Made by a program: the position numbers and the translations under genes. Below, in pieces: positions 21,485 to 49,430 of a stretch of DNA of 64,000 nucleotides (position 1 is the stretch's first letter; each line of letters starts with the position of its first letter). The notes under the pieces are model-generated. The model saw only the letters and a list, made by a program, of their open reading frames with translations, did no database searches and had not been told where the DNA came from. Origin of the DNA: an uncultured Acidobacteriota bacterium (lineage in GTDB: Bacteria; Acidobacteriota; Thermoanaerobaculia; Multivoradales; JAHEKO01). The DNA lies in contig CAVQNG010000005.1 of assembly GCA_963713825.1 (NCBI GenBank), positions 416,001 to 480,000 on the forward strand. Direction: 5' to 3'.

Positions 21485-21996
21485 GGGGTTGAGGCGGCTG
21501 TCGCTTGCTCCAGCCGATCTTTGCGGGCTTGGGGATGAGGAGCCCGGTCGTACCTCCGGTCTATCTTTGGGGCAGTGGGGCCCCCGACCATGCCCCTCCG
21601 ACGATGGAGGCCTCTGACCCGATCTGCCGCCTTCGAGGCGCATCGAGATTCCGACTACTGACTCACCCCTGACGCCCCTAAGCCCCTACACCCCTAGGCC
21701 CTCAACGGTGAAAGAGGTTCGTTCGGGTGGTTCGACAGGGGGCGCCGAGTCGAGCGCGGCGCAAGGCCCTTGATAGGGCACAGGAGATGGGGCGCGATGA
21801 CGAGACGAGGTGGCGGCCACCCATTGCAGTCTGAGTAGACGACGCCGTCCCCCGGCGAGCCACCCGGACGGACCTCTACGAGAAGAGAATCCAAGCCAGG
21901 TTCCAGGCCGGTCAGGGGCCGGTTGGAGCTAGCGACAGCCGCCCCAACCTCAAGTCCTCAGAGATCGGCCGAAGGAACGACGGCCGCTTCAACCCC
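21485..21996 (+). repeat. Modular non-coding repeat, copy A (T-T-X(degenerate)-microsatellite-Y-T'-T')
   Basis: Starts GGGGTTGAGGCG right after a TGA stop and ends CGCTTCAACCCC; Y hairpin 21714-21876; similar to five other loci. Confidence 0.85.
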
Positions 21997-22044
21997 CAGA
22001 GCCAATTGCCCTCGCCAGGTGGGCGCGATAGCATCCGGGACGTC

Positions 22045-23235
22045 ATGACCATAGCCAGCGAGCAAACTACAAGCACGAGCGTGTGCGATTTTTCCCTGAC
22101 TTCAGACCAGAAGGTCGTTCGGGAGGCCGCCCGAGACTTTGCCAGGCAGGAAATCGATCCTCTGGTCGAAGAGCTAGACGAGAGTCAGCATTTTCCGCTC
22201 GAGCTCTTCGCCAAAGCTGGAGAGCTGGGCTTCCTTGGAGTGATCTTTCCCGAGGAGTATGGCGGCTCCGGCCTGGGATACGTGGACTACGTGCTGGTCA
22301 TCACCGAGATCTCCAAGGTCGATCCTGCCATCGGTCTGAGTGTTGCAGCCCACAATTCCCTGTGCAGCAACCACATCTACAAGTTCGGCGACGAGGAGCA
22401 ACGACAGCGTTGGCTGGTGCCTCTAGCCAGCGGCACGAAGATCGGAGCGTGGAGCCTCACCGAGCCGGACGCCGGGTCGGACGCCGCCGGCACTCGGACC
22501 CGAGCCGAGCGAGTCGAGGGTGGCTGGATCCTCAATGGCTCCAAAACCTTCATCACCCATGGTTCGGTGGGCGACATCTGCGTGGTCATGGCGGTGACGG
22601 ATCCAGAGGGTCCTCGCCATCACAATCTTTCGGCCTTCGTGCTCGAGAAGGGGATGAAGGGCTTTCGCCCTGGCAAGAAGGAGAACAAGCTGGGAAGCAG
22701 GGCCTCCGATACGTCGGAAGTCATTATGGAAGACTGCTTCGTGCCCGATGGGCACCTTCTCGGCGAGCGTGGAGAGGGCTTCATTCAGGCCGTGAAGATC
22801 CTCGATGGAGGTCGCATTTCCATTGCCGCTCTCGGCCTGGGTACGGCAATCGGTGCCTATGAAACAGCACTGGCCTACGCCAAGGAGCGTGTGCAGTTCG
22901 GCAAGCCGATCGCGGAGTTCCAGGCGATCCGCTTCCATCTGGCGGAGATGGCGACGCGCATTGCGGCTGCCGAGGCGCTGACCATGGCGGCGGCGCTGAA
23001 AATGGACCAGGGCAAAAGGGTGACGCGGCTTGCCGCCGAGGCCAAGCTCTACACCGGCGAGACCGCCGTCTTCTGCGCCGAGCGGGGGGTCCAGATTCAC
23101 GGCGGCTATGGATACATCAAAGACTACAGGGCCGAGAAGTTCTACCGGGATTGCAAGATCTGCACGATCGGCGAGGGCACGAGCGAGATCCAGAGGCTGG
23201 TCATCGCCCGCCAGCTGTTGCGTGAACGTCGGTAG
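22045..23235 (+). CDS. Acyl-CoA dehydrogenase
   Basis: LTEPDAGSDAA, NGSKTFIT, GGRISIAA, QIHGGYGY, IGEGTSEIQR. Confidence 0.95.
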   Translation: MTIASEQTTSTSVCDFSLTSDQKVVREAARDFARQEIDPLVEELDESQHFPLELFAKAGELGFLGVIFPEEYGGSGLGYVDYVLVITEISKVDPAIGLSVAAHNSLCSNHIYKFGDEEQRQRWLVPLASGTKIGAWSLTEPDAGSDAAGTRTRAERVEGGWILNGSKTFITHGSVGDICVVMAVTDPEGPRHHNLSAFVLEKGMKGFRPGKKENKLGSRASDTSEVIMEDCFVPDGHLLGERGEGFIQAVKILDGGRISIAALGLGTAIGAYETALAYAKERVQFGKPIAEFQAIRFHLAEMATRIAAAEALTMAAALKMDQGKRVTRLAAEAKLYTGETAVFCAERGVQIHGGYGYIKDYRAEKFYRDCKICTIGEGTSEIQRLVIARQLLRERR

Positions 23236-23263
23236 AGCCGGGACCTACCTGCCGAGTGAAACC

Positions 23264-23686
23264 ATGATCGAAGGCATCGACCACATCGGCATCGCTGTGC
23301 GGTCGATCGAGGAGGCTCGGGCCTTCTACGAGGCTCTTGGCCTGAAGGTGGAGGCCGTCGAGGAAGTGCCTCACGAAGGCGTTCGCGTCGCTCTCATCCC
23401 TTGCGGCAATGTCCGCATCGAGTTGCTGGAGTCGACTGCCGAGGAGTCACCTGTTGGAAAGTTCCTTGCGAAACGGGGCCCCGGGCTGCACCATTTGTGC
23501 TTGACCACCGACGACGTCAAGGCGGATGACGCAGCCCTTCGGCAGTCCGGCTTCCGAGTTCTGCGACCTCAGCCAACTCGAGGAGCGGGTGGCTGTTGGG
23601 TGCAGTTCGTGCACCCCGAGAGCACCGGCGGTGTGCTTCTCGAGCTCTCGCAGCAGGCCGACGACGAGACTGACGAGACTGAATAG
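23264..23686 (+). CDS. mce: Methylmalonyl-CoA epimerase (VOC family)
   Basis: IDHIGIAV, IELLE, RGPGLHHLC, FVHPESTGGVLLEL; start ATG 23264. Confidence 0.88.
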   Translation: MIEGIDHIGIAVRSIEEARAFYEALGLKVEAVEEVPHEGVRVALIPCGNVRIELLESTAEESPVGKFLAKRGPGLHHLCLTTDDVKADDAALRQSGFRVLRPQPTRGAGGCWVQFVHPESTGGVLLELSQQADDETDETE

Positions 23687-23712
23687 AGCAGGCAACCGGG
23701 ACGGAGCATGCC

Positions 23713-24045
23713 ATGTTGCAACGAGACTCCATCGTCATCGTCCATTTGGTGAATCCGACCGAGAAGTTCTGGGGAGTCCTCCAGGACCTGGACCCGAGCG
23801 GCCTCATGCTGCGGGGCTTGAGCGTCACCAGTTTCGATGACTGGATGTTCCAGGTCGCGCGACAGGAGGATCAGGCGCTGGGTCTGTCCACCATGTTCGT
23901 GCCGTTGTTCCGGGTGGAGCGGATCTTTCTGGACGAGCAGATCGGCGAGGTCGAGAGCTATCGCCAACGCTTCCAGACCCAGGTCGGCGAACCAGTGGAG
24001 CGTTTCATCGGCATCGAGGCGCCCGAAACTGAAGTGCCCTCCTAA
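23713..24045 (+). CDS. Conserved hypothetical protein (possible Sm/LSm-like beta fold)
   Basis: 110 aa, SD present, NPTEKFWGVL..MFVPLFRVERIFLDE; fold is an inference. Confidence 0.7.
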   Translation: MLQRDSIVIVHLVNPTEKFWGVLQDLDPSGLMLRGLSVTSFDDWMFQVARQEDQALGLSTMFVPLFRVERIFLDEQIGEVESYRQRFQTQVGEPVERFIGIEAPETEVPS

Positions 24046-24055
24046 CGTCGGGCCA

Positions 24056-24329
24056 GACCTCTGGCACCGGTGAAAGCACTAGGGGCTTAGGAGCATAGTG
24101 GCGTAAGGGCTTAGGGCAGTAGGGGGAGAGGGGCCTAAGGGTGTAACAGGCGTGTCAGTAGCCGGATTCGTCATGTGTGTTGAAGGTGGTAGATCGGGCC
24201 AGGGAGACCCATGGCTCGATCGGCGGTCTCGATCCCCAAGCCCCAAAGGCCGGCCGAGACGAAGTGCGGCCGGTTCAACCCCCAAGCCCTCAAAGAGCGT
24301 CCGGGAGGCACGACCGGACGCCTCAACCC
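24056..24329 (-). repeat. Modular repeat, copy B (partial, reverse; Y lost, X internally deleted)
   Basis: TAGGGGC microsatellite, GATCGGGCCAGGGAGACCCATGGCTCGATC, then two inverted T units ending CGCCTCAACCC. Confidence 0.75.
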
Positions 24330-24334
24330 TCAAA

Positions 24335-24360
24335 CCCTGACGCCCGTTCGGGCGTCGGGA
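24335..24360 (-). terminator. Hairpin at the 3' end of the minus-strand gene
   Basis: CCTGACGCCCG-TT-CGGGCGTCGGG. Confidence 0.55.
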
Positions 24361-25146
24361 CTAGAACTGCACGTGTTGGATGAAGAACTCGGAGGCGTCT
24401 AGCTGGTTGTCGGCCAGTGCCACCGCCACGGCTCGCGTCATGTGGAACTGCCCCGCGCGATCCCGGTCCGAGGTCGAGAGCAGTAGCTCGAAACTCTGGA
24501 TCTGATCCGGGTACCGGTTCAGCAGATGCAGCAGGGTGTCGGCCGCCGCATCGAGGCTGCGAAAGACGGCGGCTTCGGAATTGGTCGTCACTTCGAGGAA
24601 GGCCCGGGTCGGGTCGCTGCCCTGATGGATTTTGGCGCCTTCGATTCCCAGCGTGTGAAGGAAGCGGGTTGCTTCAGCCGAGATCTCCATCTCCGAATAG
24701 GGTGCTCGAGGGAACGTCGTCAAGTCGACGGCACCCGTCTCGATACGTTGGTGGGCAACGTCCGGTGTCGTAGTTGCCTGTCGACGAGCCTGCGGGCGGC
24801 TCAAGGCACTGGAATCGGGCTTCGACGCAACGTCGGTGAGTCGCTGCTCTTTCTGCTCGGTTGGTTTGATCTGAGCCTCGACGAGCTGACCATCCTCCAG
24901 AACGAGAGCCGTGCCGTAGTCGCCGATGTTTGCCTGCTTGGTGCGTGGGATGTCGATCTCGGAAGCTTCGATGAACGTCCGCGTGCCGTTCTGCAGAACG
25001 ATGATGGCTTTGCCTTCCTCGATAAGGTGCTTCTCCTTGGCGATGAGTCGCGAGCCATCCTTGAGATAGATCGTGTAGGCGTTGGCCGGAATCGCCATGA
25101 TGGCGACCATCAGTATGCTGAGCAGAATCGTTAGCTGTCGATGCAT
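24361..25146 (-). CDS. Secreted hypothetical protein
   Basis: Signal peptide MHRQLTILLS..ANA followed by YTIYLKDGS. Confidence 0.75.
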   Translation of the reverse strand: MHRQLTILLSILMVAIMAIPANAYTIYLKDGSRLIAKEKHLIEEGKAIIVLQNGTRTFIEASEIDIPRTKQANIGDYGTALVLEDGQLVEAQIKPTEQKEQRLTDVASKPDSSALSRPQARRQATTTPDVAHQRIETGAVDLTTFPRAPYSEMEISAEATRFLHTLGIEGAKIHQGSDPTRAFLEVTTNSEAAVFRSLDAAADTLLHLLNRYPDQIQSFELLLSTSDRDRAGQFHMTRAVAVALADNQLDASEFFIQHVQF

Positions 25147-25333
25147 GATCTCTTTCGCGGGCCTGGTTGTCGGCTCGCTCTCCTTGTCTCTTGTTCTATT
25201 CTCGGACACTCTGCCTGGAATCACTGGCGGAATTTGTCACCAACTCGCCTGTCTTTAGCTCTGCTATGATAGCGCGTCCCTGGCCCGGCCGCGAAACCAA
25301 CGGAGCTCGGAAACCTCTCCAGAAAGACAACTT

Positions 25334-26374
25334 ATGCTCGTAGTCATGCGCATGGATGCCTCGCCCGATGAGATCGAGGGCGTGGTGAGCCGGGTCGAGT
25401 CCCACGGTCTGAAGGCGAATGCAATCGCCGGTGCCCAGCGGACGGCCGTCGGCATTACGGGCAATATCGGCGTTGTCGAGCCGGGTTTGTTCGAGTCTCT
25501 GCCCGGCGTGCTCGAGGTCATTCAGGTCTCGCACCCTTACAAGCTCGTGTCGCGGGAATTTCGGGCCGAGAACACGATTCTCGAGGTCGGTGGTGTGGCG
25601 ATCGGTGGTCGGGATCTTCTGATCATAGCCGGTCCCTGTTCTGTGGAGAGTTTCGAGCAGACGCTCCGCATTGCCGAGATCGTCAAGAATTGCGGCGGCC
25701 ATCTCTTGCGTGGTGGGGCCTTCAAGCCGCGCACCAGCCCCTACAGCTTTCAGGGCCTGGGGCTCGAAGCTTTGAAGATACTAGCCAGAGTGCGGGATGC
25801 GACGGGGCTGCCGGTGGTAACCGAGGCTCTGGACATCGACGTGCTGGACGATGTGGCCGAGTATGCCGATATCGTCCAGATCGGAGCCCGCAACATGCAG
25901 AACTACACGCTGCTGCGGCGGGCCGGGCGTTGCGGGCGCCCCGTCCTCCTGAAGCGGGGCATGAATGCGACCGTGACAGAGTTGATGCTGGCTGCCGAGT
26001 ACATCCTCGACCAGGGCAACGAGCAGGTCATTCTGTGTGAGCGGGGCATTCGGACCTTTGCCGATCACACACGCAATACGCTGGATGTCGCCGCGATACC
26101 GGCCGTCAAGAGGCTCAGCCACCTGCCGATCATCGCCGATCCGAGCCATGCCGCCGGCCAGCGTGACAAGGTCCTTCCTCTAGCACGAGCCTCCATCGCA
26201 GTGGGAGCCGACGGCTTGATGGTCGAGGTTCACGACCAGCCGAACGAAGCTCTTTCCGACGGTAATCAGGCTCTCCTGCCCGAACAGTTCATCGAGCTCA
26301 TGGAGGAGATTCGCCTCTTGGCTCCGGTTCTGGACCGCCAAGTTCCGAGCCAGGCGAGTCGACGACCGGTTTGA
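25334..26374 (+). CDS. aroF: DAHP synthase, class I-beta with N-terminal regulatory domain
   Basis: [42 protein letters not shown]. Confidence 0.95.
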
Positions 26375-27474
26375 AGTCGTCCCCCAGCGCTCTACTCGTG
26401 CTCGAAGATGGGTCAGCCTTCGAGGGCAGGGCAGTCGGGGAGGGGACGAGTTTTGGCGAGGTGGTGTTCAACACCTCGATGACCGGGTATCAGGAGATCC
26501 TCACCGATCCCTCGTACCGGGGGCAGATCGTCGTCATGACCCTGCCTCACATCGGCAACTACGGGGTCGCGAGCTCGGTCGCCGAATCGGCACGGCCGTG
26601 GGTCGAGGGTTTCGTGGCCCGTCAGTTCACCTCCCGCCCTTCCAGTCACGGCAGTGAAGAGGGACTGATCTCCTACCTCCGTCGCCATCACCTGCCGGCG
26701 ATCGACGGGGTCGATACCAGAGCCATTGTTCGCCGAGTGCGAGAACGTGGCGCTCTGCGTGGCGTTCTGACCTCGGAGCGCTCGGACGTCAGTGCCCTGG
26801 TGGCCGAGGTGCAGGAGTATCCCCTCATGGCTGGCCGAGCGCTGGTGGACGAAGTCACTTGCGCCGAGAGCTTCGAGTTGGCTCCCGAAGACCGAGACCC
26901 CGATTTCCACCTGGCGGTGTATGACTTCGGGGTCAAGAGCAACATCCTGAGATCGTTGGTTCGACGCGGGGCGCGGGTCACCGTGTTGCCGGCTCGCACA
27001 CCCTGGCGGCACTGCATCGACCTCGGAGTCGATGGGGTGCTGCTGTCCAACGGTCCTGGCGACCCCGAGCCTCTCGCGGAGGTGATCGAGAATGTGCGCG
27101 GTCTGGTCTCCTCGGGCGTGCCGCTGTTCGGCATCTGTCTCGGCCATCAGCTTCTGGGCCTGGGGGTTGGGGGACAGACCTTCAAGCTGAAGTTCGGCCA
27201 CCATGGCGGCAATCAGCCCGTCAAGGACTTGTCGACCGGGCGCGTTCTCATCACCAGCCAGAATCACGGCTTCGCGGTGGATCCCGATTCCCTGCCGGAC
27301 AACTGCCGAGTCAGCCAGGTGAATCTGAACGACGGTACCGTCGAGGCCTTCGTGGTCGAGAATCGGCCCGTGCTTTCGGCCCAGTATCATCCCGAGGCCG
27401 CGCCTGGACCCCACGACGCAGCCGAGCTTTTCGACAGCTTCTTGCAGACGGTGGTCGAGAGAGTAGCTAAGTAG
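26371..27474 (+). CDS. carA: Carbamoyl-phosphate synthase small subunit
   Basis: GEVVFNTSMTGYQE, SNGPGDP, GICLGHQ, QYHPEA. Confidence 0.97.
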   Translation: MKSSPSALLVLEDGSAFEGRAVGEGTSFGEVVFNTSMTGYQEILTDPSYRGQIVVMTLPHIGNYGVASSVAESARPWVEGFVARQFTSRPSSHGSEEGLISYLRRHHLPAIDGVDTRAIVRRVRERGALRGVLTSERSDVSALVAEVQEYPLMAGRALVDEVTCAESFELAPEDRDPDFHLAVYDFGVKSNILRSLVRRGARVTVLPARTPWRHCIDLGVDGVLLSNGPGDPEPLAEVIENVRGLVSSGVPLFGICLGHQLLGLGVGGQTFKLKFGHHGGNQPVKDLSTGRVLITSQNHGFAVDPDSLPDNCRVSQVNLNDGTVEAFVVENRPVLSAQYHPEAAPGPHDAAELFDSFLQTVVERVAK

Positions 27475-27476
27475 CC

Positions 27477-28733
27477 GTGAGCGCTAGAGGTCGAACATCA
27501 GCCCCGCTCTTGTGGTCCATTGCCTGGCGATTCCTACGCGGTAGGGAAAGCCAACTCTTGACCGGCACGGCTCGCGCGGCCCTGATTGCCACGCTCTTGG
27601 GGGTCATGGCGATGGTGATCGCCATGGCACTGATGACCGGCTACCGGAAGGACTTGCGCCGCAAGCTGGTGCGCGGCAATGCAGCCATCATCGCCTACCC
27701 GATGCTCGGCTCCGACGCGATGGTGGAGGAGGGCGATCGGGAGGCTTTGGAGGCTCTGCCCGGCGTCAACGATGTGCGAACTGTGGTCTACGGGCAAGGA
27801 GCACTGGTCGGAGGTCAGGCGCTCGACGGCCTGGAGGTCACGCTGCGGGGTGTCGATGCATCCACCAAGCTGGCCGACCTCGGTGCCGTCGAGCTCGTGT
27901 CGGATTTCAAGGACGGGGAGAGTCTGCTTCGCGATGGCAGACTGGGCGTCGTTCTCGGTAGCGAGTTGGCCCGCAGATTGGCGGCGGAGCCCGGGGAAAC
28001 CCTGCGCCTCATGGTCCTCGGACTTCATCAGGGGCGGCCGCGCTTCCGCTACCGCAGCGTCGAGCTGGCCGGTGTCTTCACGACCGGCTTCTCGGAGTTC
28101 GATCAGGCGTGGGTGGTGACCGACCGCGACGAGCTGATTCGACTGTCTGGGGGGGAGGCCGGATCTTCGTTGGTGGAGATTGCGCTGGATGATCCAGATC
28201 AGGCGGAGGAGGTGGCTGAGCAGGTGAGGGCTGTGCTGGAGTCGGAGTTTCTGGTCACCCACTGGCGAGATTTGAATCGCGAGCTGTTCACGGCGCTGCG
28301 GGTGCAGCAGATTGCACTGTTCTTCGTTCTGGGCTTGATCGTGGTGGTCTCCACCTTCAATGTCGCTTCGAGCCTGGTTGTCCTGGTACGAGAGAAGATG
28401 CGGGACATCGGTTCGCTGGCAGCGATCGGCCTGGCTCCAGGGGACCTGCGGACGATCTTCCTGCTCTATGGCCTGGGTCTCGGAGCTGTGGGTACGCTGG
28501 CCGGGATCGGCCTCGGAGCCCTTGCTTCCTGGGTCCTGACCCATTTCGAGCTGATCCGATTCGAGCCGGAGCTGGCGGCCATCTATTTCATCAGCTCGGT
28601 ACCCTTCCGAATCGAGCTGCATGACATCCTGGCGGTGACCCTGTTCTCGCTGACAGTCACCGTTGTTGCCTGTTGGGTCCCCGCCCGCCGTGCCGCCTCG
28701 GTCCTTCCTGCCACGGCGCTACGCTACGAGTAG
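27477..28733 (+). CDS. LolC/E-like ABC transporter permease
   Basis: IAWRFLR N-terminal TM, periplasmic MacB-like domain, FNVASSLVVLVREK, PARRAA..ALRYE. Confidence 0.88.
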   Translation: MSARGRTSAPLLWSIAWRFLRGRESQLLTGTARAALIATLLGVMAMVIAMALMTGYRKDLRRKLVRGNAAIIAYPMLGSDAMVEEGDREALEALPGVNDVRTVVYGQGALVGGQALDGLEVTLRGVDASTKLADLGAVELVSDFKDGESLLRDGRLGVVLGSELARRLAAEPGETLRLMVLGLHQGRPRFRYRSVELAGVFTTGFSEFDQAWVVTDRDELIRLSGGEAGSSLVEIALDDPDQAEEVAEQVRAVLESEFLVTHWRDLNRELFTALRVQQIALFFVLGLIVVVSTFNVASSLVVLVREKMRDIGSLAAIGLAPGDLRTIFLLYGLGLGAVGTLAGIGLGALASWVLTHFELIRFEPELAAIYFISSVPFRIELHDILAVTLFSLTVTVVACWVPARRAASVLPATALRYE

Positions 28734-28740
28734 AGCGGCA

Positions 28741-29210
28741 GGGGTTGAGGCGTCCGGTCGTTTCTCCCGGCCGATCTCTGGGGCTTGAGTCCCGGGTCCT
28801 GAACAGACGACTGTTTTCTTGAAGAGGTCCGTCCGGGTGGTCCGCAGGCGGACGGTGGCAGCTCATCAGACTGCGACGGGCTGGCCGCCACCTCGTCTCG
28901 TCATCGCGCCTCATCTGATGTGTTCTCTCGTGGCCCTTGCGCCGCGCTCGACGAGGCGCCCCCTTTCGCACCACCCGAACGAACCTCTGGCACCATCAGG
29001 GGCATAAGGGCATAGGGCAAATAGGGCGTAGGGGGCGATTCAGGAGCCGGATTCTTGATGTGTCTCGACGGTGGGTAGATCGGGCCATGGGTCTCCCTCG
29101 TCGGAGGGGCATGGTCGGGTGAGGCCGCAGACGAGGGAGATCCCTGGTTCGATCGGCCTCCTCAACCCCCGAGAGGACGCCGTCCCCCGGCGGACTACCC
29201 GGACGGACCT
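28741..29210 (-). repeat. Modular repeat, copy C (reverse: T-Y-microsatellite-X-T fragment-extra Y arm)
   Basis: Y 28824-28987, X 29078-29154; close inverted match to copy D. Confidence 0.88.
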
Positions 29211-29253
29211 TAGCTCACAGGTGGTCGAATTGGGGGAGTGTAGGATTCCTCCT

Positions 29254-31763: not shown

Positions 31764-31783
31764 GCAGCCCCGTTGGGGCTGCT
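31763..31783 (+). terminator. Hairpin at the gene end, immediately before repeat copy D
   Basis: AGCAGCCCC-GTT-GGGGCTGCT. Confidence 0.55.
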
Positions 31784-32316
31784 GGGTTGAGGCGTCCGAC
31801 CCTGCCCACTCATCCGTCCTGGAGCTTGGGTCCTGGGTCCTGAGATGAGGTCCGTCCGAGTGGTCCGCCGGACGTTCTTTGAGGGCTTGCTGTGGAGGAG
31901 GGCGATCGAACCAGGGATCTCCCTCGTCTGCGGCCTCACCCGACCATGCCCCTCCGACGAGGGAGACCCATGGCCCGATCTACCGCTGTCGAGACACATC
32001 AAGAATCAGATTGGTGGCTCGCCCCCTACGCCCCTATTTCCCTAAGCCCTTATGCCTCTGATGGTGCCAGAGGTTCGTTCGGGTGGTTCGACAGGGGGCG
32101 CCTCGTCGAGCGCGGCGCAAGGGCCACGAAGGAACACTAAAGATGAGGCGCGATGACGAGACGAGGTGGCGGCCCCCCGTTGCAGTCTGAGTAGCCGACG
32201 CCGTCCCCCCGGCGAACCACCCGGACGGATCTCCCCGAGAAGATAGTCTGCCGTTCAGGACCCAGGACCCAAGGCCCAAAGATCGTCCGGAAGGGACGAC
32301 CGGACGCCTCAACCCC
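31784..32316 (+). repeat. Modular repeat, copy D (T-extra Y arm-X-microsatellite-Y-T')
   Basis: GGGTTGAGGCGTCCG ... CGGACGCCTCAACCCC terminal inverted repeats; X 31904-31980; Y 32070-32233. Confidence 0.9.
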
Positions 32317-32332
32317 TGGTTGGTTGGTGGGG

Positions 32333-38679: not shown

Positions 38680-38765
38680 TGTCTTGTATCCTCCCTAGCG
38701 CGGATGAGAGCCACACCTGTCGCAGCGGTTCGTGCAACGTCTTCAGCGACTCACAGCTCTAGATA

Positions 38766-39098: not shown

Positions 39099-39407
39099 TG
39101 CGGTATCTCCTTGAATATTCGAAGTTGGCTATGTGTTTGCGGCGCTGCGACCGTTTGATCGCCTTGCCTGCCCCTTGAGAGACACGAACTTTGGAGAAGG
39201 TTCCCGAAAGGGAGAAAACCCTGTGTATCGCTATATGGATATTCAATTATGAGTCCGTTTCTGTTACTATCCCTCCAGACGAAAAATAGCTGGGGGCCGT
39301 GTATCCGCACACAGGAGCGGTGCATTCAATGTCTCGTAGGCTATTGAAGAAACTAGAAAGGTACTGAAATTCTCGTTCAGAGAATCAATGTGAGGAGGAG
39401 GATCGTG

Positions 39408-41066
39408 ATGTCTAAGTTCAAGTCTCTTCGAGTTTCACTTGGAATCGGTCTGGCGCTGATCGCCTTGCAGGCGCTGTCAGTGGTTCCAGCCACGGCACAG
39501 GTGGATATCTATGTGCTGGGGCGGCCGGGCTCGACATTCTCGCCACATTCGGCCCGAAATCTGGAGGAGATGAAAGATCTCTTCGATCGCTTCGAGCCGG
39601 ACATCCGTGAAGTACTCGAAATCGGTGGCTGGGGTGGAAACGCCGATGACCTGTTCGCGACGATGCGCGCGGCCAAAGAGGGCGACGGTACGGTTACCAG
39701 GACCACCATCAACCCCGGTGACACGCTGAAGTGGATGGCCAACCGCAAGGGCGGAGAGCCGTCTGTCGTCGTGAATCCGCGCTGGGCGGCCAAGCAGTCC
39801 GTTCCGGCATGGCAGATCCTCGTGACCTCTGGCGACACCGAGTACACCTTCATCGTGCCCGAGACCTGCATGAACCTGGCTTACAAGAGCTCGCGTTCGG
39901 TTGCCAAGCCGAAGCCGACCTGCAATATCAAGGCTAGCTACGACCAGGGTACTGACACGATCACGGTCACCGGAAGCAGCGACGGCGAGTTCAAGATCAC
40001 CGACGCTGGCCTGCCGGGTGGCAAGGGCAGTGTTGCCGATCTGAAGAGCACCGGCCCGATGACCTGGACCTTCACACCGAAGACCGACGGCACCTACACC
40101 TTCAACGGTCAGTCGGTCAAGGATGGTCAGACGCAGACCTGCACGGCCAGCGTCCGCGTGGGCAAGGCCAAGGCAGCCTGCGCCATCGACGTGATCGTCG
40201 ATCCTGAGACGAAGGTCATCTCGGTCGACAGCAGCCGGACCACCGGCGATTTCGAGTTGACCAGTCTGACGCTGCCGGACGGCACCGCCGGTGACATGGC
40301 CATGATCGAGTCCGCTGGTGATTCCAAGTGGACGTACGATCCTGCCGGTTCGCTGAAGCGGCGGCCAGGTGACTACAACTACACCTTCGCTGGCAAGTCG
40401 ACCCTGTACGACACCGAGTCGACTTGCGACACGTCGGCCATCATTCGCATCGAAGGTCCGGATTATGCCTGGATCGGCCGTGGCTACTACATCCACAACT
40501 ACCCAGGCTCGGATACCCTGCACGTCGAGAACCCAACGGGTTTCGATCCGCCGATCTTCACGCAGTTCTGGGCTGATGGTGGCAATGGCTTTGGTGGTGA
40601 GGTCGAGTACATGTTCAAGCCGAACATGGGCATTTGGGGCGGTATCGCCTTCTCGAACATCAAGACCAGCCTGATGTACGACCGGGCCGATGTCTGGCTG
40701 ACCGGCACCGACAGAGTCGATCTGCGGCAGTTCAGCCTGGGTTACAACTACCACTTCACGCCGGACCGGCGCGCCGACATCTACGCTGGCGTGCTCGCGT
40801 CCTGGGTGAACTTCAGCTCCTCGACCTTCAACTTCTCAGAGATCCCGCCGGAGCTCGGTGGGCCTGTGGACTATCAGGTCAAGTACGATAACGAGCTGTC
40901 CGGTGGCCTCAACCTGGGTATCGACTACCCGTTCTCGGAAGGCGGCCCCTGGGTCCTCTCCGGTGGGCTGAGGTACATGTTCCTGGCGCTGGAGGGTGAT
41001 GCAAACGTCTACCACATCACCATCGATCCGCTGCAGTTGTTCATCGGCGTCGGCTACCGCTGGTAG
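39408..41066 (+). CDS. Exported protein: N-terminal domain + two Cys-bracketed beta-rich repeats + C-terminal OmpW-like barrel
   Basis: Strong SD, signal peptide; C-terminal ~200 aa paralogous to the next gene; ends GVGYRW. Confidence 0.8.
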   Translation: MSKFKSLRVSLGIGLALIALQALSVVPATAQVDIYVLGRPGSTFSPHSARNLEEMKDLFDRFEPDIREVLEIGGWGGNADDLFATMRAAKEGDGTVTRTTINPGDTLKWMANRKGGEPSVVVNPRWAAKQSVPAWQILVTSGDTEYTFIVPETCMNLAYKSSRSVAKPKPTCNIKASYDQGTDTITVTGSSDGEFKITDAGLPGGKGSVADLKSTGPMTWTFTPKTDGTYTFNGQSVKDGQTQTCTASVRVGKAKAACAIDVIVDPETKVISVDSSRTTGDFELTSLTLPDGTAGDMAMIESAGDSKWTYDPAGSLKRRPGDYNYTFAGKSTLYDTESTCDTSAIIRIEGPDYAWIGRGYYIHNYPGSDTLHVENPTGFDPPIFTQFWADGGNGFGGEVEYMFKPNMGIWGGIAFSNIKTSLMYDRADVWLTGTDRVDLRQFSLGYNYHFTPDRRADIYAGVLASWVNFSSSTFNFSEIPPELGGPVDYQVKYDNELSGGLNLGIDYPFSEGGPWVLSGGLRYMFLALEGDANVYHITIDPLQLFIGVGYRW

Positions 41067-41088
41067 ATCTCTGCGTTTGAATGACTCG

Positions 41089-41119
41089 CCGCTGCGCCTT
41101 CGGGCGCAGCGGGTTTTTT
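41089..41119 (+). terminator. Rho-independent terminator
   Basis: CCGCTGCGCC-TTCG-GGCGCAGCGG then GTTTTTT. Confidence 0.9.
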
Positions 41120-41310
41120 CACTCGAACGAACCTTCTGTACCGAAAGCTCGTAATACTTCTAGAGGATGGGATATGGAGATAGCAATATCCGTATCTTCT
41201 TTCAGTGGCATTCGGGGAATGGATTTCCGGATGCGTCCAGGTAGCGGATCTGTAGACAGGCCGGTTCCGCCTGGACAAATCGAAAAACATGTAAGAAAGG
41301 GAGAACCAAT

Positions 41311-42015
41311 ATGAGTCGTTTCATTGGGAAGAGAATGAGGTTCGCAATCGCCATCGGCGTTGCGTTCCTGGCCCTGCAGTTCATTGGAGTCGCCGACTCC
41401 TCCGCGCAGGATGCAGACTTTCGCTGGATTTCACGCCTCCACTATGTGCACGTCTGGCCGGGCTCGGATACGGTCACGTTCACCCCTCCCGGTGCGCCGG
41501 GCCCGGGACTTGTCACCAGCGATTTCTTTGTCGATGGCGGCAATGGATTCAATGCCGAATTGGAATACCTGGTGACGCCCAGGATCGGCACCTATTTCGG
41601 CCTGACTTTCGACAACATGAAGACCAACATGAGTTTCGATATTGTCGGAGACTCGACGCCCATTCTCTATTCGAATGACCGGGTCGACATGCGCGGGATA
41701 AACCTGGGTGCAAACTTCCACTTCACGCCGGAGAGTCGCTTTGACCTCTACGCGGGTGCTCTGCTGTCGTGGGTAGGCTACAGCTCGTCGACCTTCTACT
41801 TCCCCGAGTTCGACTACGACCTTCAGGTAAAGTACGACGACGAGCTGGCGTGGGGGGTCAACTTCGGAGGCGACTTCGCGTTCGGTGAGGACAGCCCGTG
41901 GTTTGCCTCTGTGCAAGTTCGGTACATGCTCCTGGCGTTGGAGGGAGACTCCAACGTCGAGAAGCTGACCGTCGACCCCGTGAAGGGCTTCTTCGGTTTC
42001 GGCTATCGCTGGTAG
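41311..42015 (+). CDS. OmpW-like outer-membrane beta-barrel
   Basis: Signal peptide; NFHFTP..FDLYAG, VDP..GFGYRW. Confidence 0.82.
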   Translation: MSRFIGKRMRFAIAIGVAFLALQFIGVADSSAQDADFRWISRLHYVHVWPGSDTVTFTPPGAPGPGLVTSDFFVDGGNGFNAELEYLVTPRIGTYFGLTFDNMKTNMSFDIVGDSTPILYSNDRVDMRGINLGANFHFTPESRFDLYAGALLSWVGYSSSTFYFPEFDYDLQVKYDDELAWGVNFGGDFAFGEDSPWFASVQVRYMLLALEGDSNVEKLTVDPVKGFFGFGYRW

Positions 42016-42037
42016 ATTCTGTTGGCTGCAACTCTTG

Positions 42038-42070
42038 GCCGCTGTGTCCTTTTGGGCACAGCGGCTTTTT
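42038..42070 (+). terminator. Rho-independent terminator
   Basis: GCCGCTGTGTCC-TTTT-GGGCACAGCGGC then TTTTT. Confidence 0.88.
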
Positions 42071-42084
42071 CGTTGCAGCGCAAA

Positions 42085-42554
42085 GGGGTTGAGGCGTCCG
42101 AGCGTAACTCTCGGCCGACCCTTGAGGGCTTGAGGGTTGAAGCGTCCGTCGTACCTCCGGCCGGCCTTTGGGGGCTTGGGGGTTGAGAAGGCCGACCGAA
42201 CCAGGGATCTCCCTCGTCTGCGGCCTCACCCGACCATGCCCCTCCGACGAGAGAGACCCATGGCCCGATCTACCACCTTCGAGACACATCAATCATCGGA
42301 TTGCTGACTCACCCCCTACGCCCCTATCGCCCTAGGCCTCTAAGCCCTTAAGCCCCTACTGCCCTAAGCCCTTACGCCCCATTGGTGCCAGAGGGTCGTT
42401 CGGGTGGTTCGACAGGGGGCGCCGAGTCGAGCGCAGCGCAAGGTCCCAGATAGGGCACAGGAGATGAAGCGCGATGACGAGACGAGGCGGCGGCCCGCCC
42501 GTCATAGTCTGAGTAGCCGCCGCCGTCCGCCTGCGAATCGCCCAGACGAACCTC
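42085..42554 (+). repeat. Modular repeat, copy E (T-T-T fragment-X-long microsatellite-Y)
   Basis: X 42194-42270; about nine CCCCTA-type units 42312-42380; Y 42391-42554. Confidence 0.88.
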
Positions 42555-42572
42555 CACGAAATGGGTAGCTGA

Positions 42573-43424: not shown

Positions 43425-43469
43425 GACAGGAGTGCCAGGTCGGTGCGGCGGCAGGGCGGCGATTTGCCC

Positions 43470-46379: not shown

Positions 46380-46400
46380 CGCGTAGCTCCTTGTGCTCCC

Positions 46401-47942
46401 TTAAGCGAGGGGTACGGCTTGACCGGCCTGGACGTAGGCGTGCTCGAAGGCGAGCAGGCCGATGAGGGCGAACGGTACGGCGATCGGAGCACCGATCAAG
46501 GGTGCTGCGACGGCCACCGCCGCCAAAGCCAGTCCGGTCCAGAAGTAGAGTTTGAAGCGGCCGCCGGTCATCTCGTGGGTTGCCGCTTTGGCGTGGGCTG
46601 TAGCGTGCGTCAGCGTGATCTCACCCAGGATCATCAGGACGTGGATGAAGCTGGCGGTCGCCAGGCCCCAGAGCAGGGGAGTTACGGCTCGCGGCTCCCA
46701 AAGCAGTGCGAAGGGCAGCAACACGGCCGACCCCGCCAAGAGGGTCTGCACCAGGAGGTGCGGCGGCAACAGGGGACTCTGCCATAGGTCGCGCGCCTTG
46801 GCCTGGGCAAACAGATAGGCGGTATAGACGGCGGTCATGGTGGCCAGCGGGATGCCCGGCCAGAGCAGCATCTGGTGCCAGTCGCCCTTGGCGAGCAGGC
46901 TGGCCAGGAAATGCAGCCCCAGAATGGCCGAGTAGCCTCCGATGATGTAGGACCCCCGCACCAGCCAGCTGCGCCAGTGTGATTTCGTGAAGATCATGTA
47001 GAAGCGGGTGGGATGGTCGAGGTCCCAGATCAGCAGAACGCCGGTCAGACCCAGGAAGGCTCCCGCCACGACGGGGGCGGTCCACTGCCAGAGGCTGCTG
47101 CTCGCATCGATCATTCCGAACAGCACCAGCAGCGCCGCCACCAGGTAGGCACCGGCGGCGATCCCCTTGGTCAGCGTGTAGAGGCTCACCCGCCAGTCCC
47201 AGGGTGCCTTGTGAGGCACGTCGTAGGCCAGCACGGCAGCAGCGGAGGAGTTGCTGGCGTCCGGGCTTCCCGATACGACACTCTGTCCGCCCTGCTTCTG
47301 CTGGCTCCAGATGAAGATGCCGCCGGGCGGTCTCTGGGCAGCCAGGGGATCGAGAGTGGCCTGATGGGCGCCCCGGTAGTAGAGCTTCGGATGCGTCTCC
47401 TTCTCGGGCCGCCGCACGGCTACAGGCTGTCGATTGACCATCTGGGCGACCCGGGTGTTGGGGTCGTTCATGTCGCCTATCATGATGGCCTCGGTGGGGC
47501 AGACGACCACGCAGGCCGGTTCCAGCCCGACATCGAGGCGGTGAGCGCAGAAGTTGCACTTCTCCGCTGAATGATCTTCTGGGTTGATGAAGATGGCGTC
47601 GTAAGGGCACGAGGCGATGCAGGCCTTGCATCCGATGCAAATTGACTTGTCGAAGTCGACGATGCCGTCCGCTCGCTGGTGCATGGCCTGGGTGGGGCAG
47701 GCGGCGACGCAGGGCGGGTCTTCACACTGATTGCAGCGGGTCACCTGATAGGCGCGGCGGGCCGCCGGGAACTTGCCGACATCGACATACTTGACGTAGG
47801 TTCGCGTCACCGACAGCGGGACGTCGTTCTCTGATTTGCAGGCCGTGGTGCAAGCATGGCAACCGATGCAACTGGCATGATCGACTACCTTGCCCCACTT
47901 GAGCGGGTCGGTGCGGGTTTGAGCTGGTAGCGGCTCGGCCAT
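46401..47942 (-). CDS. Fused 4x[4Fe-4S] (NrfC/PsrB) + NrfD/PsrC membrane anchor
   Basis: CIGCHAC, CNQCEDPPC, CIGCKAC, CNFC..PACVVVCP, then ~8 TMs with DLDHPTRF, SWLVRG. Confidence 0.9.
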   Translation of the reverse strand: MAEPLPAQTRTDPLKWGKVVDHASCIGCHACTTACKSENDVPLSVTRTYVKYVDVGKFPAARRAYQVTRCNQCEDPPCVAACPTQAMHQRADGIVDFDKSICIGCKACIASCPYDAIFINPEDHSAEKCNFCAHRLDVGLEPACVVVCPTEAIMIGDMNDPNTRVAQMVNRQPVAVRRPEKETHPKLYYRGAHQATLDPLAAQRPPGGIFIWSQQKQGGQSVVSGSPDASNSSAAAVLAYDVPHKAPWDWRVSLYTLTKGIAAGAYLVAALLVLFGMIDASSSLWQWTAPVVAGAFLGLTGVLLIWDLDHPTRFYMIFTKSHWRSWLVRGSYIIGGYSAILGLHFLASLLAKGDWHQMLLWPGIPLATMTAVYTAYLFAQAKARDLWQSPLLPPHLLVQTLLAGSAVLLPFALLWEPRAVTPLLWGLATASFIHVLMILGEITLTHATAHAKAATHEMTGGRFKLYFWTGLALAAVAVAAPLIGAPIAVPFALIGLLAFEHAYVQAGQAVPLA

Positions 47943-48068
47943 CGATACTCCCTCCCGTATGTCGGGCCCCATGTTAAGAGATGGGAGGACCGACCGCAAT
48001 CCTCATTTCGAGCCCTTTGACAGGACCCGCTCGTTGCAGCAAACTGGTCGCTCGGAGGGGCGAAGAGA

Positions 48069-49139
48069 ATGACAGCGGAGAGTCGGCAGGAATCCACGGC
48101 ATCTGATGGTGAGACGGCGACCAGCAGGGGTTGGCTGGACCCTGGCAGCCTTTCCACGAGCGAAGGCACGACTGCCCTGGTGCACCTCTATCGAGGCGAG
48201 GTGACTCGATCCAATACTTGGCGCACTCGACTCGACGCGACAACCAACTGGGCCGTGGTGACCACGGGCATCGCGCTGTCCTATGCCTTCGGCGCCGCCG
48301 ACAACACTCCGGTGGTCATCCTCATCGTCAGCCTCCTGGTGCTGCTGTTTCTTTTCATCGAGGCTCGTCGGTATCGCTACTACGAGCTTTGGACCCATCG
48401 AGTTCGTCTCATGGAGATGAACTTTTACTCCGGCCTACTATCGGCCAACTTCAAGCCGGAAGTAGGGTGGGCACAGGAAATCGTCGACACCCTGCAGCAC
48501 CCATCCTTCCCTATCGGGCTGCTGGAAGCTCTGGGTCGGCGCTACCGACGCAACTATGCCCTGCTGTTCTTCATCCTTACCTTGAGCTGGCTTGCCAAGA
48601 TCGTCATTCATCCGACGTCGGTCGAGAGCTGGAGTCAGTTTCTCGAGCGTGCCTCGGTGGGTCCCGTCCCAGGCTGGGTAGTCCTGATCGGTGGGGTCCT
48701 CTTCAATGGTGGGCTGCTAGCGTTAGGCCTCTTTACTGTAGGCCTGCGTCGTACCGATGCCGAGGTCTTCGACCGCACGCCGCGCTTCTATCGCAGGCTT
48801 TGGGCCAGGATACGAGCCGCGACGCGAGAGTCCCTGGAAATCGACCTGGGGTCCTTCAAGCCCCATCTCGGGGGTGGCCGCAAGCTCGTCTTCGTCATCT
48901 CGGACGAGGTCGAGGCGGTGAGCAGGCCGCTGATGAATGAGCTCGACCGAGGAGTGACCCTCATCAAGGGACAAGGCATGTACAGCGGCAGGGAGCACGG
49001 CATCCTGATGTGCGTGGTGCGGAGCCGCCAGGTGGAGCCACTGAAGGAGATCGTGCACCAGGCCGACCCGAACGCCTTCGTGGTCATCAGTGCGGCCCAG
49101 GATGTCCGCGGCGAGGGCTTTCGCCCGCTGGAAGCCTAG
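48069..49139 (+). CDS. DUF2270 membrane domain fused to DUF2179 (P-II-like) C-terminal domain
   Basis: HLYRGE..WRTRLDATTNWAV, IEARRYRYY; C-terminal RGVTLIKGQGMYSG..DPNAFV..GEGF. Confidence 0.82.
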   Translation: MTAESRQESTASDGETATSRGWLDPGSLSTSEGTTALVHLYRGEVTRSNTWRTRLDATTNWAVVTTGIALSYAFGAADNTPVVILIVSLLVLLFLFIEARRYRYYELWTHRVRLMEMNFYSGLLSANFKPEVGWAQEIVDTLQHPSFPIGLLEALGRRYRRNYALLFFILTLSWLAKIVIHPTSVESWSQFLERASVGPVPGWVVLIGGVLFNGGLLALGLFTVGLRRTDAEVFDRTPRFYRRLWARIRAATRESLEIDLGSFKPHLGGGRKLVFVISDEVEAVSRPLMNELDRGVTLIKGQGMYSGREHGILMCVVRSRQVEPLKEIVHQADPNAFVVISAAQDVRGEGFRPLEA

Positions 49140-49140
49140 G

Positions 49141-49430
49141 GAGGTTGAGGTGCTCGGCGACTTCGCCGATCGGTCCTTGAGGGCTTGGGGTTGAGGCAGT
49201 CGGTCGTGCCATCCGGCTGTTCTTCTGGGTCCTGGGCAAAAGACCGAAAACTTGTTGAGGTCCGTCCGGGTGGTTCGCAGGGGGACGGCGACGGCTACTC
49301 AGACTGTGACGGATGGGCCGCCACCTTGTCTCGTCATCGCGCCTCATCTGTCTTGCCCTTCGATGGACCTTGCGCTGCACTCGACTCGGCACCCCCTATC
49401 GGACCACCCGAACGGGCCTCCAATCATCAG
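49141..49430 (-). repeat. Modular repeat, copy F (partial, reverse: T-T-Y)
   Basis: Starts 1 nt after a TAG stop; Y 49257-49420. Confidence 0.82.

Follow-up and report, generated by a model that had tools for sequence, protein, structure and literature searches.

Lineage-restricted, probably REP-like hairpin repeats forming intergenic mosaics in an uncultured sediment member of the Acidobacteriota

Introduction

Most of what is known about REP, BIME, NIME and BOX mosaics of hairpin repeats comes from a small number of cultured Proteobacteria and Firmicutes, and both their spread and their benefit to the host are still debated. In Neisseria, NIMEs lie between genes as arrays of longer units, with dRS3, a short hairpin-type repeat, on either side of each, and these arrays are hot spots for insertion sequences (IS) and other insertions; no conserved multi-helix junction is known among NIME units. 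The repeats described here likewise form intergenic arrays with bracketing short hairpin repeats, but are unrelated to NIMEs in sequence. BOX of Streptococcus pneumoniae is modular (boxA-boxB(n)-boxC), with a variable number of modules and a predicted stable structure; to our knowledge it has no known transposase and no REP-like arrays anchored at stop codons. Our repeats share its modularity, variable module number, predicted stable structure and lack of a known transposase, but differ from it in sequence and host.

REPs and BIMEs of Enterobacteria and Pseudomonas are portrayed, in the parts of PMC2817692, PMC3333891 and PMC3733652 that concern them, as short, GC-rich hairpins outside genes that number more than 100 copies and group into mosaics containing conserved linker motifs; they lie downstream of genes and in convergent gaps, are specific in sequence to a species or genus and serve as landing sites for insertion sequences. 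The present repeats resemble them in each of these respects. They also resemble REPIN-RAYT systems, which excerpts of PMC3116915 and bioRxiv 10.1101/2021.07.10.451892 present as non-autonomous, long-lived and mostly vertically inherited hairpin populations of one lineage, whose structure is kept by compensatory change, and the CGTC-type REPs, a REP class without a dedicated transposase according to part of Di Nocera 2013 (PMC3733652). Acidobacteria are not among the phyla listed for either REP type in the passages of PMC3733652 on them, and among the 10 titles listed, out of 11 papers, for Acidobacteria and repetitive extragenic palindromic sequences, none concerned such a repeat family. Here we describe six stretches of DNA that are probably lineage-restricted REP-like hairpin repeats forming intergenic mosaics, comparable to the BIMEs of E. 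coli and the NIMEs of Neisseria.

Results

We analysed a stretch of 64 kb (the window), in which a first-pass annotation had pointed to six copies of an undescribed repeat. Repeat search, alignment and a module map show that all six are real (Table 1), and scanning the window with the module map revealed no true copy beyond them. The repeat had further been described as non-coding, modular, present in both orientations and probably abundant genome-wide, and all of this is supported; the genome has 172 merged loci. These loci amount to 39 kb (~0.7% of the DNA), are nearly all intergenic and lie by preference between convergent genes. The nhmmer matches in the genome number 97 for Y, 53 for X and 56 for the right-hand T, numbers well beyond chance; more than 20% overlap with called genes was seen for 5 of the Y, 2 of the X and 4 of the T matches, the T figure referring to right-hand matches only. 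No reading frame is open across Y, the best being stop-free in 50 of 76 copies, which agrees with the reported lack of a conserved ORF. The family also matches no named one in Rfam, as had been supposed: the 64-kb window gave 0 matches at gathering score, copy D gave matches at chance level only at E up to 10, and six divergent Y loci gave 0 matches at E up to 0.5.

Table 1. Copies of the repeat in the window and positions of their modules
Copy	Coordinates	Strand	Composition	Module positions
A, complete mosaic	21485..21996	+	T, T/X, m, Y, linker, inverted T	T 21485-21527; T/X 21531-21664; m 21675-21698 (3 units); Y 21707-21879, sense +; inverted T 21955-21995
B, partial and reversed, without Y	24056..24336	-		m 24102-24125; X 3' half 24154-24207; T 24240-24281 and 24287-24336
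C	28741..29212	-	T, linker, Y, m, X, Y-arm fragment	T 28742-28784, sense +; Y 28821-28995, sense -; m 29003-29018; X- 29037-29169; Y-arm fragment 29172-29212
D, complete mosaic	31784..32316	+	degenerate T through to inverted T	degenerate T from 31784; Y-arm fragment and T 3' box 31842-31885; X unit 31891-32020; m 32023-32054 (4 units); Y 32062-32234, sense +; linker; inverted T 32273-32315
E, without right-hand T	42085..42556	+	two T, X, m, Y	T 42086-42128 and 42134-42174; X 42179-42310; m 42313-42376 (8 units); Y 42383-42556, sense +
F, without X and m	49141..49430	-	T units, linker, Y	T 49142-49183 and about 49186-49229, sense +; Y 49255-49423, sense -

The modules are collinear, in the order T>(n) X> m> Y> <T(n), and each of them is optional. 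The first sketch of the element gave this order; its sizes and shapes needed correction. Y is not a simple 163-nt hairpin but a three-way junction of ~175 nt; the microsatellite, here called m, is (CCCCTANN)n, an array with an 8-nt period (repeat family D4) instead of the period first given; and X, sketched as a ~77-nt hairpin, is a T-type box carrying a long hairpin (25-bp) that spans ~80-90 nt within a unit of ~125 nt. We find m directly 5' of nearly every Y, and X upstream of Y in 31 of 33 cases. Genome-wide, 46 clusters hold only T and 18 only Y, and T-only clusters are arranged directly (T> T> or <T <T) in 46 instances, as T> <T in 5 and as <T T> in 1. BIMEs are clusters of REPs that alternate in orientation around conserved linker motifs; here linkers are conserved and module order is fixed, and the units of one array all point the same way, with inversion seen only from one side of the mosaic to the other. 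Each module was shown to carry its wobble pairs on one defined strand, and in 30 of 33 cases it is the opposite strand of X that folds better.

X is essentially confined to the genus, with matches in 6/6 genus genomes and one weak 32-nt match in 1/39 others. Many near-identical X hairpins occur in this genome (G000) and few copies in four relatives, showing an amplification of X in this genome's lineage. Since the modules differ in age and in distribution across genomes, we regard them as separate elements that assemble in a fixed order. The proposal of a single MITE-like element bounded by terminal inverted repeats thus gives way to separable modules, and the alternative label of the first-pass annotation, a BIME-like mosaic, describes the copies best.

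Y folds better on its sense strand in 68 of 76 copies, and its pairs are strand-specific (G·U 52 vs A·C 8). Among 28 sequences from five genera, in an alignment (A4) that was fitted to the model and so leans towards the structure, pairing holds in 96.6% of cells, both partners have changed in 38 of 41 pairs, and the covariation score reaches 0.752, compared with 0.18 after shuffling (0/500) and 0.06-0.12 with slid partners. An independent MAFFT alignment recovers P3, inner P2 and inner P1. Between genera P1 is rewritten, but the motifs of junction and loops stay the same. At the blastn level Y is found in 6/6 genus genomes and 0/35 others; the covariance model detects it in 27/45 genomes and in 12/20 genera of the family, patchily across the order, at ~10 to ~100 copies per genome including truncated, split and flipped ones. 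A hammerhead or kink-turn in Y was considered and rejected: just one copy has CUGAUGAG, and other genera do not keep the GAUGA/CUGA pair.

Copies of Y at the same site are 75-88% identical between species, against only 58-62% at four-fold degenerate sites. This conservation suggests that Y copies may be selected in place. Rare variants within Y are as frequent per column in paired (1.06) as in unpaired (1.08) positions, with 16 pair-keeping transitions vs 7 pair-breaking; because paired columns are no poorer in rare variants, in-place selection on each Y copy is unsupported by this test.

Could Y be something other than a module of a REP-like mosaic? It is possible, though less likely than not, that Y, with its range across much of an order, conserved motifs and freely covarying 26-bp closing stem, represents a new strand-specific class of structured nucleic acid. 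It would be either an RNA with a role in the cell or a single-stranded substrate for a mobilising enzyme other than the known transposases, with T and X forming a second, REP-like family that would use the same machinery. Another reading, which we consider rather doubtful, takes Y and perhaps X as a functional structured RNA, either acting in cis as part of a 3'-UTR or as antisense, or made from a small RNA gene. Selection on the RNA would then maintain the many copies, with T arrays as accessory 3'-end hairpins and mobility as secondary. The deep compensatory change, the wobble bias, the motifs kept while P1 is rewritten, the identity between species far above the neutral level and the patchy order-wide distribution all point this way, as do a 307-nt metatranscriptome contig that covers the gene next to copy D and that copy's T units with 0 differences, and a few Y-like contigs in RNA libraries. 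However, the fit of the A4 alignment to its model favours the structure, rare variants are not depleted in Y stems, no promoter-like or terminator-like signal stood out in a scan, and Y shows no orientation bias towards neighbouring genes in co-directional gaps (16 same, 20 opposite). Its ~10 to ~100 copies per genome, with truncated, split and flipped ones among them, display a pattern typical of mobile DNA. The RNA support consists of contigs without strand or ends, from libraries that DNA can contaminate: the public runs (18 DNA runs containing the stretch and two RNA runs with small shares) are kept as contigs only, and therefore give no strand, ends or ranking, and parts of the stretch uncovered by RNA carry no information.

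T is a 46-nt REP-like unit made of a 5' box GGGGTTGAGRCG, a GC hairpin of varying sequence in which pairing is kept, and a 3' box TCTTTGAGGGCTTG. It has the hallmarks of a REP, being a short imperfect palindrome, high in copy (170 strict units vs 12 in the reversed-genome control) and extragenic (4/56 overlapping genes). The inner hairpin has an MFE of -9.6 vs -5.2 for shuffled sequence. Some units, but not most of the family, start with CGTC; what precedes the hairpin in the consensus is the box itself. Strict T occurs in 6/6 genus genomes and 0/35 others, and at least 10 matches to the T core were found in 14/45 family genomes of several genera (controls 0-1). Units stand head to tail with a tandem period of 46 nt. 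The first lies -7..+10 nt from a stop codon and the second at about +46. Part of this agreement with ORF ends comes from the unit itself, which has two TGA triplets. In the window, copy A begins at the first base past a gene that ends in TGA at 21484, the T unit of copy C starts 7 nt past the stop of gene 27477..28733, the T units of copy F directly follow the stop of gene 48069..49139, and those of copy B point towards gene 24361..25224(-). The upstream neighbour is a same-sense gene for 124/170 T units, a count in which units of one array are not independent, and the sense strand folds better in 139/170. The arrays are oriented so that an incoming transcript reads the better-folding strand.

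This placement invites the explanation that T arrays and the surrounding mosaics are host 3'-end signals for termination, insulation or mRNA stabilisation, spread by duplication, gene conversion and slippage instead of transposition. Besides the position of arrays at stop codons and their orientation towards the gene that runs into them, it can call on Y being concentrated in convergent gaps (45 of 95 placeable copies vs 18% of all gaps), on sites conserved across species, and on orthologous T units that keep the hairpin with differing stems and conserve their boxes while linkers drift; part of bioRxiv 10.64898/2026.03.23.713779 reports E. coli REPs as 3'-UTR regulators. We nevertheless judge it unlikely. 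Only one T unit passes a canonical terminator scan, the others having too short a T-tract, and shuffled sequence gives as many terminator-like hits as the region does. A terminator would need no conserved boxes of 12-14 nt, 46/170 units have no preceding same-sense gene, the TGA triplets account for part of the stop-codon coincidence, and the lineage-specific expansion of X to dozens of sites requires a copying process.

We compared the sites among six species. Sites are mostly inherited vertically at the same positions, and change takes the form of gain, loss, truncation or flipping of whole modules. At site C, Y has the same orientation in 6/6 genomes and T precedes it in 4/6; site A, of which G003 keeps only a 62-nt relic, carries Y+ in G000 and a Y- of the long form in G004 and G005; at site B, G000 lacks the Y that relatives have. 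Comparing filled with empty sites gave no clean allele, as the 'empty' site A of G003 retains a T box and an m-like relic. A 1.9-kb difference of G004 at site D, considered as a mobile gene, proved to be an ordinary 495-aa oxidoreductase-like gene. No clean deletion joint was seen in the DNA contigs of two sediment runs; joints in public-run contigs lie between different copies of the repeat. The suggestion that the element is mobile therefore stands in part: modules are gained, lost and flipped at the same site and X has expanded, but most sites are occupied in several species.

We found no transposase inside or beside the six copies, as the first reading had it. The genome encodes four RAYT/TIRYT-like Y1 proteins; the 6 kb around each of these Y1_Tnp genes contain no T, X or Y, and the flanks are unrepeated in the genome. 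RAYT-like proteins occur in 38/41 relatives, with or without repeats, whereas strict T plus blastn-level Y occur in 6/41. Y1_Tnp matches were found in 37/45 genomes, and G017 (99% complete) has Y with no Y1_Tnp match. The RAYT-like gene of L011 has a 29-nt flanking inverted repeat, reminiscent of TIRYTs, RAYT-like genes with inverted repeats of their own in place of flanking REPs, among which PMC3733652 describes a distinct Acidobacteria group. Profile searches of the 96%-complete genome for the TnpB zinc ribbon (PF07282), DDE_Tnp_1 and RVT_1 gave 0 matches. Y orientation is independent of the replication strand (50 vs 47 relative to GC-skew replichores), not as IS200/IS605-type single-strand insertion would give, and this, along with the 0 PF07282 matches, sets the repeats apart from IS200/IS605-derived PATEs and omega-RNA relics. 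No mobilising gene is linked to the repeats, which counts against enzyme-driven spread.

Genes for rve-type and IS110-type transposases are present and three adjoin element loci, but as candidates for the element's own transposases they were rejected, both having proved to be insertions into repeats. Two insertion sequences landed inside copies, one splitting Y (model positions 2-117 and 132-174), and the IS110 insertion site is uninterrupted in two paralogous copies. REPs are known as insertion-sequence targets (PMC1525189, in part), and the insertions seen here match that behaviour. Over 16 closed elements the longest flank repeat averaged 2.69 vs 2.49 in the control, with no fixed length; there is no systematic target-site duplication, and none had been clear by eye either. 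It is highly improbable that we are dealing with classic MITEs, arisen by deletion from a DDE-type IS whose transposase would move them through 12-nt terminal inverted repeats, even though copies A and D do carry the inverted ends first described (GGGGTTGAGGCG..CGCYTCAACCCC) and IS genes adjoin some loci, given that there is no fixed-length duplication, no autonomous IS with the same ends was seen, DDE_Tnp_1 is among the profiles with 0 matches, the adjacent ISs are insertions, and the 'terminal repeats' are outward-facing T units also found alone in arrays. Integron attC sites were likewise rejected; the T box resembles the GTTRRRY core, but the order of the two cores is reversed and the loci are dispersed among conserved housekeeping genes.

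Discussion

Our best reading is that these are new BIME/NIME-like mosaic repeats, non-autonomous and inherited mostly vertically with turnover of modules. They depart from the described systems in several ways. Measured against the REP definition in PMC3733652, T lacks a GTAG or CGTC tag and has 12-14-nt boxes on both sides; its arrays run head to tail, whereas the same paper (Di Nocera 2013) describes classical REPs as paired by like ends, either both heads or both tails, and no RAYT gene is flanked by T, X or Y units. The CGTC REPs described there have 8-9-bp stems, 4-5-nt loops and a CCA tail, and T differs in box, loop size and arrangement. REPINs, as characterised in portions of PMC3116915 and bioRxiv 10.1101/2021.07.10.451892, are inverted REP doublets flanking a single-copy RAYT; T units are not doublets, and the four RAYT-like genes here are without physical or phyletic link to the repeats. 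The mosaic also includes a 175-nt three-way junction and an 8-nt array, neither of which belongs to BIMEs.

We propose that T, X, m and Y are separate elements with separate histories that join as T(n)-X-m-Y-inverted T(n). Their spread may be non-autonomous, through a trans-acting enzyme that recognises box and hairpin while the nucleic acid is single-stranded. No enzyme candidates were seen besides the four RAYT/TIRYT-like Y1 proteins, whose link to the repeats is weak; recombination and slippage between copies probably contribute too. The repeats may persist because hairpins do no harm at the 3' ends of genes, or are of use there, candidate benefits being protection of mRNA 3' ends and insulation between convergent genes.

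Together these data describe a rich mosaic-repeat system in uncultured sediment Acidobacteriota that departs from several usual rules: the units have no tag and no RAYT linked to them, their arrays are direct and start from stop codons, and one large junction module keeps its structure across genera. Y can now be searched for by covariance model, as a concrete candidate for a new element of structured RNA or single-strand DNA. As Y is old and widespread and X has expanded recently, modules of different age can serve as a natural time series of how repeats are copied and retained.

Repeat modules and their abundance

Repeat searches and alignment confirm the claim of the first-pass annotation that the window holds six mutually repeated stretches in both orientations (copies A-F), and a scan of the window for modules found no true copy beyond these six. 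The repeats had been expected to be abundant genome-wide, and they are. Blastn of the studied genome (G000; 5.42 Mb, 38 contigs, ~62% GC) with the six copies gave 172 merged loci, 39 kb in total; nhmmer profiles gave 97 matches for module Y, 53 for X and 56 for the right-hand T, and a strict T pattern found 170 units, compared with 12 in a reversed-genome control. The absence of a conserved ORF likewise stood: Y copies share no open frame, and the best one lacks stops in 50 of 76. Window positions 21485-49430 carry six loci in 28 kb, where genome-wide density predicts about one, and the other 36 kb of the window has none; contig C5, of which the window is 416001-480000, has ~2x the genome-average repeat density overall. 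None of the 172 loci falls on contig C1 (414 kb) or C34 (156 kb), for which genome-wide density predicts ~13 and ~5. GC is slightly lower in C1 (60.4% vs about 61.7%), and the two contigs may represent a replicon of their own, DNA acquired recently or contigs binned in error.

The modules and order described previously were retained, with three details corrected. Y, taken for a ~163-nt hairpin, is instead a three-way junction of about 175 nt; the microsatellite m, read as CCCCTA, has a true period of 8 nt (CCCCTANN); and X, read as a ~77-nt hairpin, is a 25-bp-stem hairpin within a ~125-nt unit that opens with a T-type box. The T unit spans 46 nt and consists of the box GGGGTTGAGRCG, a GC hairpin whose sequence varies between units with pairing kept, and the box TCTTTGAGGGCTTG; T arrays run head to tail. 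Over 165 clusters the modules follow one another collinearly as T>(n), X>, m>, Y>, inverted T(n), and each module may be absent, 46 clusters being T-only and 18 loci Y-only. X lies upstream of Y in 31 of 33 cases, an m array sits immediately 5' of nearly all Y, a conserved linker joins Y to inverted T, and some copies display a symmetric m> Y <m arrangement. A "long form" of Y (226-228 nt), with an additional ~45-nt GC hairpin (GGGGAGCCCC..GGGGCTCCC-type) within one arm, is common in the congeneric genome G005 and found also in G003 and G004; none was seen among the window copies.

Y is a strand-specific, covarying three-way junction

Across the six genomes of the genus, Y is predicted to fold into a three-way junction with a closing stem of ~26 bp. 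A covariance model built on the Y alignment from these genomes found full-length (175-185 nt), multi-copy matches in other genera. In 28 Y sequences from five genera, placed in a model-fitted alignment that hence leans towards the model, 96.6% of cells were paired, both sides had changed in 38 of 41 pairs, and the covariation score reached 0.752, compared with 0.18 for shuffled alignments (0/500) and 0.06-0.12 with slid partners. An independent MAFFT alignment analyzed with RNAalifold recovered P3 with compensatory changes, inner P2 and inner P1. Between genera the closing stem is rewritten, and junction and loop motifs are kept.

Among Y cells, G·U pairs outnumber A·C 52 to 8, exceeding them in 21 of 28 sequences and falling below in none (0/28). 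In the studied genome the sense strand of Y folds better in 68 of 76 copies, the opposite strand of X in 30 of 33, and the gene-facing sense of T in 139 of 170. Together these preferences and the G·U excess indicate that each module was shaped as a single strand, RNA or single-stranded DNA. Y, a strand-specific three-way junction covarying across genera, is the most unusual module; it is absent from Rfam, in line with the earlier failure to match a named family.

A 307-nt metatranscriptome contig covers, with 0 differences, the Y end and inverted T units of copy D and extends into the neighbouring gene, and RNA libraries yielded a few Y-like contigs; all usable public runs are assembled contigs without readable strand or transcript ends, and DNA carry-over is possible. 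In a scan for canonical terminators T units mostly failed.

The modules differ in their distribution

By blastn, Y occurs in all six genus genomes (own included) and in 0/19 other family genera searched, and the strict T pattern in 6/6 genus genomes and 0/35 others, with 0 control matches. X by blastn is limited to the genus save one weak 32-nt match, with 3 matches in G004, 5 in G003, 1 in G001 and 4 in G005; G002 has a distinct, homogeneous X subfamily with about 83% identity to that of the studied genome, where many X hairpins are 92-100% identical to that of copy D and whole X units have a median identity of 0.89. The covariance model detected Y in 27 of 45 family genomes (12/20 genera) and, order-wide at E ≤ 1e-6, in 21/121 genomes and 17/58 genera, four other families among them, these E-values being rough and the extra-family matches made by score alone. 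A T-core pattern (TGARGCGNCCGG, 4-10 nt, CCGGNCG) gave at least 10 matches in 14/45 family genomes (controls 0-1), with frequent tandem arrays and counts of 258 and 117 in the family genomes G016 and G023. It spans six genera plus g2, the latter on the unpublished genome G006 alone. This genome is included in the tallies for blastn Y, strict T, RAYT-like protein, covariance-model Y, T-core, Y1_Tnp and X, and g2 for T-core is the sole entry hanging on it.

Many genomes carry Y without T-core, and some T-core without Y. These separate occurrences and differing distributions show that the modules are separable elements of different age and not parts of one transposon; because their ranges differ across genomes, the earlier idea of one mobile-element unit was abandoned.

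Two long, regular T-core arrays of G016, a genome of another genus, differ in architecture from the 46-nt T arrays of the studied genome. In other genera, inverted pairs of Y-type elements of differing subtypes, <100 to about 260 nt apart, are reminiscent of a doublet arrangement.

Placement relative to genes

Rough gene calling of the studied genome (4142 genes, 86% coding) placed few matches within genes; overlap by >20% was found for 5/97 Y, 2/53 X and 4/56 T. Convergent gaps hold 45 of 95 placeable Y, compared with 18% of all gaps. Y orientation showed no preference in co-directional gaps (16 same vs 20 opposite) and no replication-strand bias (50 vs 47; GC skew delimits the replichores cleanly). 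The gene upstream has the same sense as T for 124 of 170 units, those within one array not being independent. Counted from the stop codon, the first unit begins at -7 to +10 nt, and the next follows after about 46 nt. As each T unit holds two TGA triplets, part of this coincidence with ORF ends is built in. The preceding stop codon falls within the T box at site A (the orthologous place of copy A) in G003 and G005, and is independent of T at site C.

A 234-aa gene of the window is absent at this place in G003 and G004, where the nearest counterparts, 74-75% identical, are found on different contigs. A 135-nt repeat (72%) is common to this gene and the 3' end region of its neighbour (39390..41066), so that the 234-aa gene looks like a local paralogue.

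Candidate mobilisers and insertion sequences

The first-pass annotation reported no transposase and proposed a check for adjoining RAYT/HUH, TnpB or RT genes. The studied genome encodes four Y1_Tnp proteins (313-363 aa), whose best NCBIfam match is the REP-associated tyrosine transposase at 51-59 bits (cut-off 80). No T, X or Y lies less than 6 kb from any of the four genes, whose flanks are unique in the genome. Profiles for the TnpB zinc ribbon, DDE_Tnp_1 and RVT_1 gave 0 matches in this genome, and the original statement holds. One Y1 gene has a 29-nt flanking inverted repeat, similarly to the TIR-flanked tyrosine transposases reported for Acidobacteria in PMC3733652. Among relatives, a RAYT-like protein family occurs in 38/41 and Y1_Tnp in 37/45 genomes; the family genome G017 (99% complete) yielded 8 matches for Y and none for Y1_Tnp.

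Three IS110-type and nine rve-type matches were found in the studied genome, three of them adjoining element loci. Insertion sequences landing within the repeats (see table) recall REPs, which serve as IS targets according to PMC1525189. The IS110 site is uninterrupted in ~87-90% identical paralogues (C27:~21324-21357 and C3:~974466-974499), indicating that a segment at least 4 kb long is present in the assembly in three diverged versions, on C26, C27 and C3. The rve IS has two relatives of about 68% identity, one at C3:~216 kb, next to a T-T array, and one at C3:~1065 kb.

Coordinates of insertion sequences, genes and repeat variants (L-numbers, extracted loci)
Feature	Location	Remarks
rve-type IS (343-aa gene)	G000:C3:766596-767935	splits Y copy: model positions 2-117 left, 132-174 right
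IS110-family element, ~1.4 kb (327-aa gene, PF01548 64.7 bits)	G000:C26:~21300-22730	inserted in T/m cluster
234-aa gene	window 41311-42015 (+)	
495-aa gene	L111:11911-13398 (-)	G004, site D
T-core tandem arrays	G016:C1:1571433-1572993 and 1678870-1679430	period about 88-89 nt, 7 or more units
Long-form Y	L116:1482-1695, L111:975-1185, L112:2453-2669	examples; others exist
Inverted Y-type pairs	L129:1292-1683, L130:1501-1939, L140:1063-1683	other genera

Class assignment

The proposed class, a MITE/REPIN/BIME-like mosaic, survives in its BIME-like part. Unlike MITEs, the repeats have neither a target-site duplication, none being found at closed T>...<T elements as previously noted by eye, nor a parent IS. 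T units appear REP-like in working, by analogy, but differ from REP/REPIN-RAYT systems in defining features, having no tag, no doublet arrangement and no linked RAYT. The best reading is a BIME/NIME-like mosaic repeat system not described before.

Turnover and constraint at orthologous sites

Identical occupancy in all relatives had been named as evidence against mobility. Most sites are shared by several species, but modules differ among genomes at A, B, C and F. At site A the studied genome has the full mosaic with Y+, G004 and G005 have long-form Y in the opposite orientation, and G003 retains a 62-nt relic (T box and m-like remnant). At site B, Y is present in G003, G004 and G005 and missing in the studied genome. 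At site C, Y has the same orientation in 6/6 genomes, truncated in G003 and G004, and a T unit precedes it in 4/6; Y+ occupies site E in the studied genome, G003 and G004, and site F has full Y in the studied genome and an arm alone in G003. Site D of the studied genome is taken up by the 566-nt copy D alone; in G004 it contains an additional gene whose product looks, by eye, like a pyridine-nucleotide-disulfide oxidoreductase.

Between species, Y copies at the same site are 75-88% identical, no closer mutually than to Y at other sites; within the studied genome, nearest-neighbour identity has a median of 0.886. In flanking orthologues, identity at four-fold degenerate sites is only 62% (G004) and 58% (G003), a comparison indicating that Y is held far above the neutral level. 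Rare variants of Y within the studied genome show no depletion in stems (1.06 vs 1.08 per column), and pair-keeping transitions exceed pair-breaking ones by only 16 to 7. Orthologous T units have conserved boxes, stems that differ yet pair, and drifting linkers. The site turnover and Y conservation together do not fit one old burst with neutral decay afterwards. The site comparisons are consistent with continuing low-rate copying, in which conserved sources would supply modules to pre-existing repeat sites, with some constraint on the resident copies perhaps contributing.
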